From the sequence record MZ997840.1: a DNA stretch of 44,728 bases; one strand, 5' to 3'. Within the stretch, counting starts at the first letter, position 1; the number at the start of each line of letters is the position of its first letter. The stretch is from Escherichia phage ULINTec6. Below the pieces are notes generated by a model. It saw only the letters and a list, made by a program, of their open reading frames with translations. It made no database searches and was not told where the DNA came from. A program made the position numbers and the translations under genes. Of the stretch, positions 2,347 through 9,639 are shown piece after piece.

Positions 2347-3231
2347 ATGACTACTGAAAACGTCCTCCTGTCTGTCCGCGAAGCTGCAACCGCTGAGATT
2401 AAGCAACATTTGGATAATATCGGCACTTCTTACATCAAAGTTGGCGCTTGTCTGAATGAATTACGCGGTGATTTCGAAGGTCAAAAAGACTTTTTAGCTT
2501 ATGTAGAATCAGAGTTCGGCATCAAGAAGGCACAATGCTACAAGCTGATGAGTGTAGCCCGTGTCTTTGAAGGAGACGAACGCTTTAAAGGTGTGGCTAT
2601 GCGTGTAATGCTGGCGCTTGTTCCTTTCGCTGATGAAAATATAATCATGGAGAAGGCCGCAGAACTCGCCGCAGATGGCAAGCTGGACACTAACGCCGTA
2701 AACGCTCTGATTGATCCTAAGAAAGAGACAAAGGCTGAGACGGTACAATCTAAGGCTGAGACAGTAAAACCGCAGGAGAACGCGACTGAGGCCGCAGAAT
2801 CACAGGAAATGCAAGCGCCGCAGGTAGTGCCACCCGCGAGCGAGCAGGAGGCCGACGAATCAGCACCGTGGGAAGAGGAAAGCAAGCCTGAAGCACCGAA
2901 GTCCGCGCCGCTGGATAACACGGCTAATACTGAGAATGCCGCTATTGCCGGTCTGCTGGCACAAATTAAGGCACTGACTGAGCAATTACAGGCAGCTAAT
3001 GACCGCATCGCCTCCTTAAGTAGCGCACGCGAAAGCAAGAAGGCAGCCGCGCCTATGCTGCCGCAATTCAAATCTTCCTGCTTCTATGCTCGCTTAGGTT
3101 TAAGCGCCGAGGAGGCAACGAAGAAAACAGCAGTTAACAAGGCACGCCGCGAACTGGTTAAGCTAGGCTATGGTGAAGGCCATGAAGCATGGGCCTTAAT
3201 ATCTGAGGCAGTAGAAGAATTAACTAAGTAA
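2347..3231 (+). CDS. Early hypothetical protein with globular N-terminal domain and low-complexity A/E/K/P/Q-rich C-terminal half
   Basis: ORF track (start adjusted to ATG 2347 after AAGGTG RBS); occupies the position of T7 gene 0.7 upstream of RNAP but shows no kinase motifs. Confidence 0.55.
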   Translation: MTTENVLLSVREAATAEIKQHLDNIGTSYIKVGACLNELRGDFEGQKDFLAYVESEFGIKKAQCYKLMSVARVFEGDERFKGVAMRVMLALVPFADENIIMEKAAELAADGKLDTNAVNALIDPKKETKAETVQSKAETVKPQENATEAAESQEMQAPQVVPPASEQEADESAPWEEESKPEAPKSAPLDNTANTENAAIAGLLAQIKALTEQLQAANDRIASLSSARESKKAAAPMLPQFKSSCFYARLGLSAEEATKKTAVNKARRELVKLGYGEGHEAWALISEAVEELTK

Positions 3232-6403: not shown

Positions 6404-7557
6404 ATGGCTATTATTAATAACATCCCATGTCCTCAATGTCAGAAGAATGGACACGATAAATCAGGCAACCACCTTATGATATTCGAGGATGGTGCTGGGT
6501 ACTGTAACCGTGGTCACTTCCATGATAATGGCAGACCTTACTACCATAAGCCTGAAGGGGGCATCGAGATAACCGAGTTGCCTATTACTGGCAATATCAA
6601 ATATACACCTTCCCAGTTTAAAGAGATGGAGAAGGAAGGGAAGATTAGCGACCCTAAGCTACGCGCCATCGCACTTGGTGGTATGCGTATGAAAGACCGT
6701 TGGGAGGTTATGAATGAGCAAGAAAGGGCAGACCAAGAAACAGAGTGGAAACTTGATGTTGAATGGTTCCTCACGCTTAAGCGTAAGAATCTTGTTTCCC
6801 GACACATTCGCGGCGACATTTGCGCATTGTATGATGTACGGGTCGGACACGATGAAGAAGGTAGAGTCTCACGGCATTACTATCCACGCTTCGAAAAAGG
6901 TGAGCTAGTAGGCGCTAAGTGTCGCACATTACCTAAAGACTTTAAGTTTGGTCATTTAGGTAAACTATTTGGTATGCAAGATCTTTTCGGTATGAATACT
7001 TTGTCTCACGTGTTAGACAAGGGAAGACGAAAGGATTGCTTGCTTATTGTCGGCGGCGAACTGGATGCACTAGCAGCACAGCAAATGCTCCTTGATTCTG
7101 CCAAGGGTACTAAGTGGGAAGGCCAGCCTTACCATGTATGGTCTGTCAATAAAGGTGAGTCTTGCCTTGAAGAGATAGTACAGAACCGTGAACACATCGC
7201 CCAATTTAAGAAGATTATATGGGGTTTTGATGGAGATGAGGTAGGGCAGAAGCAGAATCAGCAAGCGGCTCGCCTGTTTCCTGGCAAATCCTATATCCTT
7301 GAGTACCCTTCTGGTTGCAAAGATGCCAACAAGGCATTGATGGCTGGCAAGGCTAAAGAGTTTGTTGATGCATGGTTTAATGCCAAGTCATCTGATGAAG
7401 TCTTTGGTAGCCAGATTAAATCTATCGCATCTCAAAGGGATAAGCTCAAGGCTGCACGTCCAGAGCAAGGACTATCATGGCCTTGGCCTAAGCTGAACAA
7501 GGTAACGCTAGGTATTCGTAAGAACCAACTTATCATTGTAGGCGCAGGCTCTGGCGT
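6404..7557 (+). CDS. Primase-helicase (T7 gene 4 family), exon 1: zinc-ribbon, TOPRIM primase and start of the helicase P-loop (GAGSGV)
   Basis: IPCPQCQKNGHDKSGNHL...YCNRGHFH zinc ribbon and LLIVGGELDALA / FDGDEVGQ / CKDANKALM TOPRIM motifs match T7 gp4; the reading frame hits a stop 7 codons after GAGSGV. Confidence 0.85.
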
Positions 7558-8344
7558 TAACATTAGCGCCGCCATGTAGTAATACATGGGCAATAATCGT
7601 GTGAACTCAGGGGAAGACTAGAACAGTTAATCCTGAGCCAAGCTAGGCACACCTCAAATTCAAAGGAGGTGTTATGCAATTTAAAGAAGTACCAGATCAC
7701 AGTAATTATATTTGTTATGAGAATGGCACGGTTGTTAATCGTAAGACTGGAAAGGTCTTGAAAGAAGATACAACTAACCGAGGTTATAAGCGGATTACAG
7801 TAAGCAAGGGCAACAAGGTAACACGTTGGAGTGTGCACCGTTTAGTTGCTTTACTGTTTATCCCTAACCCTCATAATTATGAAACTGTTAATCACATATC
7901 GGGAGATAAGACGGATAACTCTGTTAGTAATCTTGAGTGGATGAGCCAAGAACAGAACCAAGCCCATGCTAAATATACAGGACTGTGTCCTAAAGGTGAG
8001 GCTGTTGGCACTAATAAGTTCAAAGAGGCAACTATTCAGCAAGTGTGCAAGCTAATAGAGAAAGGTTTATCTCGCGGTGAAATTATGAAAGCAACGAGCA
8101 TCTCTAAAGCAACCTTTGATGACATTCGTAGAAGGAAGACTTGGAAGCACGTATCTTGTTCATATAAATGGTGACAATCTGGTGTGCCTAGAAGGTGCAA
8201 CGACTATCCCGAAAGGGAGTACAGCCAAGCGGCTGGAAGCGCACGACACCCATCGTGGGTGATGATATAGTCTGGTCTATATGGGGACATATAGCAGTTC
8301 ATAAGAGAACGGGCGTGGCTTAGCGAACCACGTCGAACATAACG
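7558..8344 (+). mobile_element. Putative self-splicing group I intron (787 nt) interrupting the helicase Walker A motif, with an HNH homing endonuclease ORF in the P6 loop
   Basis: Exon end GGCGU 7553-7557 pairs with GCGCC 7566-7570 (P1, U-G at splice site); P-like CTCAGG 7606-7611 pairs with Q-like AATCCTGAG 7629-7637; R-like GTGCAACGACTATC 8195-8208 and S-like GATGATATAGTCTGG 8261-8275 form P7 (GACTA/TAGTC); intron ends with G 8344; splicing restores GAGSGVGKTEF. Confidence 0.75.
7674..8174 (+). CDS. Intron-encoded HNH homing endonuclease (166 aa)
   Basis: HNH motif VHRLVALLFIPNP...VNHISGDKTDNSVSNLEWMSQEQN; own RBS AAAGGAGGTG; C-terminal helix-turn-helix-like region. Confidence 0.85.
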   Translation: MQFKEVPDHSNYICYENGTVVNRKTGKVLKEDTTNRGYKRITVSKGNKVTRWSVHRLVALLFIPNPHNYETVNHISGDKTDNSVSNLEWMSQEQNQAHAKYTGLCPKGEAVGTNKFKEATIQQVCKLIEKGLSRGEIMKATSISKATFDDIRRRKTWKHVSCSYKW

Positions 8345-9170
8345 AGGTAAGACTGAGTTCCTCCGCGAAGTGGTTAAACACCTCATTGAAGAGCACGGTG
8401 AATCTGTAGGCATCATTTCTACAGAAGACCCGATGGTCAAGGTGTCCCGTGCTTTTATCGGTAAGTGGATTGATAAGCGCATTGAGTTACCGCCAACCAA
8501 TGACCCGAAAGAAGACGGATACCGTGAGGTGTTCGACTACACCGAGGAAGAAGCTAACGCTGCCATTGATTATGTGGCTGATACAGGAAAGCTATTTGTG
8601 GCCGACCTAGAAGGCGACTATTCTATGGAGAAGGTAGAGCAAACTTGCCTAGAGTTTGAGGCTATGGGCATTTCTAATATCATCATTGATAACTTAACGG
8701 GGATTAAATTAGATGAGCGTGCTTTTGGTGGGAAGGTTGGTGCACTTGATGAATGCGTCAAACGAATTGGTACTATCAAAGACCGACATGCGGTTACGAT
8801 TTTCCTTGTCTCTCACCTTACACGTCCTCCGGCAAACCGTACCCAACACGAAGAAGGTGGCGAAGTTATCCTTTCTGACTTCCGAGGCTCAGGCGCTATC
8901 GGATTCTGGGCATCTTACGCCTTGGGGATTGAGCGTAATACAAGAGCTGAAACGCTTGATGAAAGGACTACCACGTACATCTCGTGTGTCAAAGACCGCG
9001 ATCAAGGTGTGTGGACTGGCACTAAAGTGAAACTTAAAGGGGATATGACCACAGGTAGGTTATTGGAATGGGAAGATCGTGTTTCTAGATTTGACACAGG
9101 TATACCTAAGGAGCAAAGTGTACCTGATGAAAACACAGGAGAGTTGAATGAAGAAACTTCAGAGTTTTGA
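8345..9170 (+). CDS. Primase-helicase exon 2: remainder of the helicase domain, beginning (A)GKTEFLREV...
   Basis: In-frame upstream extension of the 8370 ORF reads GKTEFLREVVKHL, the second half of the Walker A motif; DnaB-family blocks LVSHLTRP and ILSDFRGSGAIGF match T7 gp4 helicase; no canonical start codon of its own. Confidence 0.8.
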
Positions 9171-9639
9171 GGAAGCAGGATATGTCGTCAAGGAAGACGG
9201 CACGATCTTAAACCCAAAGGGTTTAGTCAGAAAACCATCCTTCGCAGGTAAGAATGTTAAATACTATGTAGTATCTTGGAGGGATAAACATTCTAAGAAA
9301 ACAATCATAGATTTAGTTCACAGATTGGTTGCTAAGAAGTACATACCTAATCCACATGGTTTACCAGAAGTTCATCATAAAGACTTTAATCCTCTTAATT
9401 GTCATAAGGATAATTTGGAATGGACAGATGGGAAAACCAATTGTGAGTATAGTTATTCCAGGGTAGAGGCTGCGCTTGCACGAAGTGCTACCTTACTCTC
9501 ACCTGATGGGGTTAAGCATGAGGTATTTAATGTTCGTAAGTTCTGCCGTGAACATAGCCTCAATCCACCTAGCATATTTGAAGTGCTTAGTGGTAAGCGT
9601 AAATCACACAAAGGATGGACTATTTACCGGACACTATAG
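9148..9639 (+). CDS. Free-standing HNH homing endonuclease (163 aa)
   Basis: HNH motif VHRLVAKKYIPNP...VHHKDFNPLNCHKDNLEW; GGAGAG RBS; overlaps the helicase stop; the last codons are encoded by the phage promoter at 9622-9644. Confidence 0.8.
   Translation: MKKLQSFEEAGYVVKEDGTILNPKGLVRKPSFAGKNVKYYVVSWRDKHSKKTIIDLVHRLVAKKYIPNPHGLPEVHHKDFNPLNCHKDNLEWTDGKTNCEYSYSRVEAALARSATLLSPDGVKHEVFNVRKFCREHSLNPPSIFEVLSGKRKSHKGWTIYRTL

Follow-up and report, generated by a model that had tools for sequence, protein, structure and literature searches.

A probable self-splicing group I intron with an HNH endonuclease gene in the Walker A codons of a Vectrevirus primase-helicase gene

INTRODUCTION

Group I introns with HNH genes are already well documented in the replication genes of T7/SP6-type and other phages. 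Here we describe a 787-nt insert, very probably a mobile self-splicing group I intron of IA2 type, which splits the Val codon in the Walker A motif (P-loop) of the primase-helicase gene of Escherichia phage ULINTec6, a member of Vectrevirus. The window is the whole stretch of DNA analysed (44,728 nt; MZ997840.1), in which the region studied runs from 6404 to 9170 and the insert from 7558 to 8344. The reading is carried by observations on where exactly the insert lies, on its fold and the covariation in it, on the homology of both ribozyme and open reading frame (ORF), on the restoration of the host frame and on the sporadic distribution of the element.

The closest structural model comes from Staphylococcus phage Twort. 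Landthaler and Shub reportedly showed in 1999 that the group I introns of its orf142 gene, which are of subgroup IA2, are self-splicing, and a crystal structure of a Twort ribozyme (PDB 1Y0Q) is said to have been published by Golden et al. in 2005. The ULINTec6 insert resembles the Twort introns in having a P3-P9 core with P7.1 and P7.2, in its near-identical R and S elements (GUGCAACGACUAU and GAUAUAGUCU), in matching the same Rfam family (RF00028) and in an identity of 73% over 128 core columns. The Twort introns, however, are ORF-less or contain other ORFs and interrupt a structural gene of a Gram-positive myovirus, whereas in ULINTec6, a coliphage podovirus, the interrupted gene encodes primase-helicase and P6a holds an HNH ORF. 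With respect to the encoded protein, the nearest system is the group I intron in the DNA-polymerase gene of Bacillus phage SPO1, likewise a replication gene, which encodes I-HmuI of the same HNH family. Here the host gene and the host phylum are different, and the two proteins are only ~35-40% identical, in the N-terminal half; I-HmuI is a nicking enzyme, and the ULINTec6 protein may act likewise.

Among podoviruses, Bonocora and Shub reportedly described introns in the DNA-polymerase genes of T7-like phages in 2004. A putative group I intron in the K1F DNA-polymerase gene (PMC4925675) and one in the K1E large-terminase gene (PMC4246154) have been documented, and group I introns generally prefer genes of DNA metabolism (PMC12350094, PMC3984707). 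Like these T7/SP6-type elements, the ULINTec6 intron belongs to group I, contains a homing-endonuclease gene and interrupts an essential gene of a member of Autographiviridae; it differs in its host gene, primase-helicase, and in its site, the Walker A loop. Closer in these two respects are introns in primase/helicase genes of phages Z1, PVP-SE1, W70, HP1, KZY1 and Asterion, which have a homologous ribozyme, a gp4-type host gene and an insertion at P-loop codons, although some of them are ORF-less and their overall nucleotide identity to the ULINTec6 intron is at most 69%. No paper on a primase-helicase intron in Vectrevirus was found in the literature searched, and the paper on phage ULINTec7, which has the same intron (see below), makes no mention of it.

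RESULTS

The insert interrupts the Walker A motif of the primase-helicase gene

ULINTec6 was placed in Vectrevirus (K1E/K1-5 group; Molineuxvirinae, Autographiviridae), and positions 6404-9170 are 93-98% identical to many K1E/K1-5-like phages. A sequence-only reading of the window had called the phage SP6-like, which holds insofar as it is related to SP6, but its actual place is in Vectrevirus and not with SP6 itself. The interrupted gene consists of two exons:

6404-7557, plus strand: primase-helicase exon 1, encoding the primase domains (zinc-binding and TOPRIM), the linker and, as ...VGAGSGV, the first half of Walker A
8345-9170, plus strand: primase-helicase exon 2, which opens with the last base of the Val codon and GKTEF... 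and encodes the DnaB-like helicase domain

The primase ORF (6404-7579) ends in ...VGAGSGV-NISAAM-stop, so that the Val codon of GAGSGV is followed by six codons and a UAG at 7577-7579; according to the ORF list, exon 1 itself closes on the first two bases of that Val codon. The reading frame of the helicase opens no earlier than 8343, from where it runs R-GKTEFLREV, and its first possible start codon, a GTG at 8370, is already past GKT. Exon 1 matches Pfam Toprim_2 and exon 2 matches DnaB_C, and both are colinear with K1E gp9 and T7 gp4.

The boundaries were fixed by comparison with gp9 of K1E and K1-5, both of which are intron-less. These genes read ...GGCTCTGGTGT followed directly by AGGTAAGACTGAG (GGTGT/AGGTAAG) and contain CTGGTGTAGGTAAGACTGAG at the site, whereas ULINTec6 reads ...GGCTCTGGCGT, 787 nt, and then AGGTAAGACTGAG (GGCGT-787 nt-AGGTAAG). 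At the left junction the next base is T and not A, and at the right junction the preceding base is G and not T; because the junction bases differ from those of the intron-less alleles, the insert is exactly 7558-8344, without sliding ambiguity. It is preceded by U (7557) and its last base is G (8344). When 7557 is joined to 8345, a reading frame of 1980 nt results (659 amino acids, with GAGSGVGKTEF) that is colinear with K1E gp9; the peptide spanning the junction is GAGSGVGKTEFLR. Both the primase and the helicase domain of this protein align with T7 gp4 (E=1.5e-23), with IIVGAGSGVGKTEFLRE of ULINTec6 opposite IMVTSGSGMGKSTFVRQ of T7, which is the Walker A/H1 motif, and the junction falls in SGSGMGKST/AGSGVGKT. 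This alignment places the break inside the Val codon of AGSGV/GKT.

On all these points the sequence-only reading stands: the primase ORF does end shortly after GAGSGV, the helicase frame does resume at GKTEFLREV with no start of its own, the insert does end in G8344, and the 7557/8345 junction that it proposed is the one given by the alignment with intron-less genes and yields the 659-amino acid product.

The insert folds into a group I ribozyme core

The following elements were assigned within the insert, those between 8200 and 8273 on the basis of the Rfam alignment and covariation:

7558-8344, plus strand: group I intron, IA2-type, 787 nt (K1E/K1-5 comparison, Rfam RF00028, covariation and minimum free energy (MFE) fold)
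7552-7571, plus strand: P1, in which exon UGGCGU (7552-7557) and intron UA (7558-7559) are paired with UAGCGCCG (7564-7571)
7572-7589, plus strand: P2 hairpin (CCAUGUA-GUAA-UACAUGG), which holds the in-frame stop UAG 7577-7579
7597-7639, plus strand: 5' half of the core, with the P3 5' strand (7597-7603), P4 (7606-7612 with 7631-7637), P5 (7616-7619 with 7625-7628) and the P6 5' strand (7638-7639)
7643-7653, plus strand: P6a 5' strand (CUAGGCACACC), which pairs with 8181-8191 and closes the ORF-holding loop
8181-8195, plus strand: P6a 3' strand (GGUGUGCCUAG, 8181-8191) and P6 3' strand (GG, 8194-8195), from covariation and fold
8200-8273, plus strand: 3' half of the core, with the P7 5' strand (8200, 8202-8206), P7.1 (8207-8218), P7.2 (8222-8235), the P3 3' strand (8240-8246), P8 (8248-8260) and the P7 3' strand (8268-8273)
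8277-8344, plus strand: 3' end of the intron, with P9 (8277-8294), P9.1 (8297-8310), P9.2 (8312-8334) and a tail to the terminal G8344

The MFE fold of the intron with the ORF deleted recovered P1, P2, P3, P4, P5, P6a, P7.1, P7.2, P8, P9, P9.1 and P9.2. The core pairing of P1 is between GGCGU (7553-7557) and GCGCC (7566-7570), and the MFE fold extends it to UGGCGUUA/UAGCGCCG, with a U7557·G7566 wobble at the 5' splice site. P6a is an 11-bp helix with a duplex energy of -22.5 kcal/mol. The P7 5' strand is separated from the P3 3' strand by two covarying hairpins, P7.1 (UCCC-GAAA-GGGA) and P7.2; their presence identifies the IA2 architecture that is typical of phage introns. The P1 pairing with its U-G wobble had been proposed from the sequence, as had CTCAGG/CCTGAG for P4 and GACTA/TAGTC for P7; the latter two are present at the positions proposed, where fold and covariation agree with them.

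RF00028 (Intron_gpI) was the sole Rfam family matched anywhere in the window; the lack of a significant match to a group I model, which the sequence-only reading had named as a refuting outcome, was thus not what the search gave. The two halves of the intron were matched separately, the 3' half (8011-8294) with 38 bits (E=8e-8 locally, 2.7e-6 window-wide) and the 5' half (7549-7911) with 17.9 bits. ORF-bearing relatives score in the same range as ULINTec6 (31-47 bits), the Twort introns at ~100 bits, and ORF-less relatives with ~80% identical cores at 84.7 bits (an Acinetobacter phage, L009), 75.5 bits (Pseudoalteromonas HP1, L010) and 70.4 bits (E. coli phage W70, L011). No further group I intron, e.g. 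in the terminase gene as in K1E or in the DNA-polymerase gene, was found in the window at E<=0.01.

Relatives were collected from GenBank phages, in which 889 records, those of the Twort introns included, match at least one half of the core, and from IMG/VR (39 loci); hundreds of phage group I introns have ~80% identity to the two halves. From these, 27 distinct cores were aligned after removal of the P6a insert, and pairs were counted for the structure drawn on the ULINTec6 sequence. Standard pairs occupy 96.6% of the 1563 cells, as against 29.5-43.0% when the partners are slid by 1-3 columns, and changes on both sides are seen in 35 of the 58 pairs; none of 500 shuffles matched the observed value on any of five measures. 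All cells of P3 are paired and 5 of its 7 pairs are compensatory. P7 is invariant in all 27 sequences, as expected of the guanosine-binding helix. Compensatory changes occur in every pair of P7.1, P7.2, P8 and P9.2 (7/7) and in 4 of the 7 pairs of P9. The weakest helix is P8 (73% paired), which is probably a problem of alignment in a hairpin of variable length. The homology of the core and the fold backed by covariation put this arrangement far beyond chance.

The P6a loop holds an HNH gene

Two features lie between the strands of P6a:

7674-8174, plus strand: HNH homing endonuclease ORF (166 amino acids), I-HmuI-like, with a predicted C-terminal helix-turn-helix (Pfam, PDB match)
7665-7672, plus strand: Shine-Dalgarno (SD) region GGAGGUGU (GGAGGTGT) of the HNH ORF, one base upstream of its ATG

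The ORF (501 nt) is wholly inside the terminal loop of P6a and stops 6 nt before its 3' strand, which agrees with the earlier claim of an HNH ORF with its own ribosome-binding site at the P6-loop position. Its product matches Pfam HNH_3 (33.8 bits, cut-off 24.8) and, at its C-terminus, comes close to the cut-off of HTH_7 (23.2 bits, cut-off 23.8). Residues 1-106 align with I-HmuI (PDB 1U3E; E=7.7e-12), the His and Asn of the motif included. Homologues were detected by tblastn in 1352 phage records, the closest being that of ULINTec7 with 99.4% identity, followed by the one in Klebsiella phage vB_Kp_Z1, which aligns over the full length with 59%; an exact look-up of the HNH protein returned no record in public assemblies. 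In relatives, the P6a helices around the ORFs differ in sequence and are equally complementary. A scan of 7300-8600 for sigma-70-type promoters from which the HNH ORF could be expressed, and for intrinsic terminators at which the primase transcript could stop, gave counts at the chance level.

The P6a 5' strand was also found to overlap an anti-SD sequence (ACACCUC, 7649-7655), and its rival partners exclude each other. Locally, ACACCUC can pair with the SD sequence GAGGUGU (7666-7672) in a hairpin of -10.5 to -11.7 kcal/mol; the distal option is the P6a 3' strand (~-22 kcal/mol). A similar overlap of at least 7 nt, with SD duplexes of -11 to -16 kcal/mol, is seen in ~9 of the ORF-bearing introns, of which 17 were analysed, and is missing in the rest. 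The pairing of SD and P6a recurs, then, in part of the set only, and it exceeds shuffled sequences by a modest margin (z-scores of -1.5 to -3). At five other loci (L013, L014, L021, L027 and L049) the endonuclease ORF extends 39-135 nt beyond J6/7 into the 3' half of the core, so that coding sequence and catalytic RNA overlap.

Distribution of the intron and markers in the flanking exons

In only 1 of the 116 related phage records that match the gene is the intron present, namely in ULINTec7, where it is 99.9% identical to that of ULINTec6. Such rare occurrence fits a mobile element. Outside Vectrevirus, the gene of Klebsiella phage vB_Kp_Z1 (Gajwadongvirus) is interrupted at precisely this codon position (GAGTGV/GKTE) by an intron that is homologous in both ribozyme and ORF and has the same P1 (GGCGU/GCGCC).

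Three variants of the 5' exon (-29A, -14C and -2C) are common to ULINTec6 and ULINTec7 and are absent from K1E and K1-5; the T-to-C change at -2 turns a U·G pair of P1 into C-G. They fit co-conversion or selection for P1, and shared ancestry explains them equally well. Synonymous exon differences adjoin the intron on both sides (7528-7555 and 8363-8393). At +19, +22, +28, +34 and +49, ULINTec6 alone differs and ULINTec7 is identical to K1E, which suggests that recombination in either ULINTec6 or ULINTec7 had a breakpoint shortly after the 3' end of the intron.

Further downstream (area 9041-9639), a second, free-standing HNH ORF (9148-9639, 163 amino acids) overlaps the helicase stop codon. 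Its match to HNH_3 (20.6 bits) is under the Pfam cut-off. It is missing from K1E, K1-5 and ULINTec7 and found in Vectrevirus phages NIC06P3 and PDP21P3, and in Salmonella phage BP12B a homologue with 77% identity adjoins the primase/helicase gene. Over its last ~230 nt the helicase gene of ULINTec6 is far more divergent from K1E, K1-5 and ULINTec7 (46 mismatches per 100 nt) than elsewhere, and this divergent 3' end looks like a flank that was imported with the second endonuclease gene.

Related introns at the P-loop and elsewhere

Other introns of this ribozyme lineage were located at or near the same codons:

Insertion after GAG (GAG/VKMGKS): E. coli phage W70
Insertion inside the Val codon (GSGV/KMGKS): Pseudoalteromonas HP1 and two IMG/VR contigs; ULINTec6 and Z1 have the same point
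Insertion between G and K (GAAQKMG/KSE and similar): Zobellviridae KZY1, Klebsiella Asterion and five IMG/VR contigs
Insertion between G and K (GPSGGG/KST): Salmonella PVP-SE1, gene 13

The three distinct insertion points are all within ~12 nt of P-loop codons in gp4-type primase-helicase genes. On the sequences compared, this intron lineage has repeatedly targeted the part of phage primase-helicase genes that encodes Walker A. The P-loop intron loci (L004, L006, L007, L008, L010, L011, L021, L024, L027, L030, L045, L047 and L048) come from Gajwadongvirus, Zobellviridae, Vequintavirinae/Seunavirus and marine viral contigs.

The same ribozyme lineage also occurs in the DNA-polymerase genes of Acinetobacter, Pectobacterium and Klebsiella podoviruses. 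In Erwinia phage VL73 (L005, ~2480-3202) and Vibrio phage JSF38 (L012, ~1480-2206) it is associated with a different HNH ORF and inserted upstream, in the primase part (...FVDA/...), with Walker A intact in exon 2. Two group I introns are found close together in one gene or region at L009 (1451-1666 and 2413-2635) and L010 (1446-1716 and 2220-2501), and at L031 (~419-1372) two appear to be almost back to back.

Alternative explanations

Several points weigh against reading 7558-8344 as a mobile, self-splicing intron: (i) the pairing of the P1 loop with the 3' exon that would form P10 is negligible in the fold analysis; (ii) the RF00028 score of 38 bits is below the gathering cut-off of the family (50 bits), which is probably because the 501-nt ORF in P6a splits the match and the model must skip it; (iii) the intron ORF has Asn before the catalytic His (VNH) where I-HmuI has Asp (VDH); (iv) the -29, -14 and -2 variants could stem from common ancestry of the two phages and not from co-conversion; and (v) splicing, endonuclease activity and homing of the ULINTec6 intron are what we infer from the observations above. 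With regard to (iii), the Asn variant is common among related intron ORFs and, since they have it too, is probably not inactivating.

The alternative that survives best is that the intron splices and its HNH gene no longer encodes an active homing endonuclease, the element being immobile and vertically inherited or the protein serving, for example, as a maturase. The substitution of the Asp of I-HmuI, the HTH_7 score just under the cut-off and the presence of the intron in two phages only, both of one lineage, could all be understood in this way. However, the ORF is of full length and is kept at 99.4% identity in ULINTec7 and at 59% over 100% of its length in another genus, where the residues of the HNH motif are retained; homing is the simplest explanation for the same site in two genera, and related intron ORFs share the NH variant. 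We regard loss of endonuclease activity as unlikely and, if it has occurred, the identification of the intron is unchanged.

Alternatively, the gene could be permanently split by an insert that does not splice, with primase and helicase translated as two polypeptides that come together afterwards. Such 'genes in pieces' are exemplified by nrdA of Aeromonas phage Aeh1, which is split by mobE, and primase and helicase are separable domains in T7 gp4, as a split of this kind would ask for. The ULINTec7 gene stands in GenBank as two 'primase/helicase' coding sequences (CDSs) on either side of the HNH gene, and non-splicing HNH insertions are documented (PMC7344957). Yet the break is within the P-loop and not between the domains. 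The candidate starts of a separate helicase, GTG 8370 and ATG 8433 (the equivalent of the start annotated in ULINTec7), are both past GKT and neither has an SD sequence; because they lie after GKT, such a helicase would be without Walker A; the separate helicase starting at 8370, which the sequence-only reading had named among its refuting outcomes, would lack the first half of the P-loop. Moreover, the ribozyme core is intact, with an invariant P7 and all helices paired, which would be unexpected in a decaying, non-functional intron. A permanently split gene is very improbable on this evidence.

Neither an artefact (of assembly, or a chimera) nor an intein can account for the insert: the 99.9% identical 787-nt insert in an independently sequenced phage and the base-exact boundaries dismiss the former, and the stop UAG (7577-7579) in the host frame dismisses the latter.

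DISCUSSION

For the very probable case that 7558-8344 is a mobile group I intron, the following course of events is proposed. The primase-helicase gene would be transcribed as a single pre-mRNA, in which the exon end UGGCGU and the internal guide GCGCCG would form P1. According to established group I chemistry, exogenous guanosine bound in P7 would attack after U7557, the freed exon 1 would then attack after the terminal G8344, and ligation of 7557 to 8345 would produce the messenger for the 659-amino acid gp4-type primase-helicase. On unspliced RNA, ribosomes would halt at the UAG in P2 (7577-7579) and release a 391-amino acid, primase-only product; the efficiency of splicing could in this way set the ratio of primase to helicase. 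In a mixed infection, the HNH protein would be expected, from its I-HmuI family and the sporadic distribution of the intron, to act on the allele that lacks the intron, by a cut or nick near CTGGTGT/AGGTAAGACTGAG, and recombinational repair would copy the intron and nearby exon markers into that allele.

Two readings that go beyond an ordinary phage intron are put forward together, and tentatively; as a pair we think them doubtful. Firstly, gp4-type genes may have, in ~12 nt at the P-loop, a hot spot with several sites, of which three adjacent ones have apparently been occupied by a single ribozyme lineage in at least four groups (Autographiviridae, Zobellviridae, Vequintavirinae and unclassified marine phages). 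Secondly, as modelled from the competing helices, the overlap of P6a and the SD region could act as a translational delay switch: the local SD pairing would form first and the completed ribozyme fold would free the ribosome-binding site, so that translation of the endonuclease would be delayed until the core has been transcribed.

As for annotation, intron-bearing primase-helicase genes are deposited as 2-3 'primase/helicase' CDSs in ULINTec6, in ULINTec7 (L001; MZ997841, 1501-4276) and at L004, L005, L006, L007 and L011. The downstream CDSs begin wherever an internal codon served as a start, which in ULINTec7 is the ATG corresponding to 8433, past the P-loop. These downstream pieces are mis-started and without a P-loop, and the exons should be joined across the intron. 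Among the annotations of intron-bearing primase-helicase genes, that of PVP-SE1 (GU070616) is the only one in which the exons are already joined as one CDS. The sequence-only reading had presented a self-splicing intron in this gene as a notable and possibly undescribed find, which was overstated: the P-loop GK-junction intron of PVP-SE1 is annotated in GenBank by that joined CDS, and the intron itself is in GenBank as part of ULINTec7, where the ORF is labelled 'HNH homing endonuclease # Phage intron'.

Current understanding is not overturned by these results. The element is of a well-known kind, and its host gene is one seldom discussed in connection with such introns. Phages of the K1E/K1-5 type are candidates for phage therapy, and an intron-borne homing endonuclease can skew the inheritance of markers in mixed infections and in phage cocktails. 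With the Walker A codons of gp4-type primase-helicase genes, a further target joins DNA polymerase, ribonucleotide reductase, thymidylate synthase and terminase among the replication genes in which phage group I introns have settled. Inteins are known to cluster at P-loops, and the use of this one target across phage families parallels that clustering.

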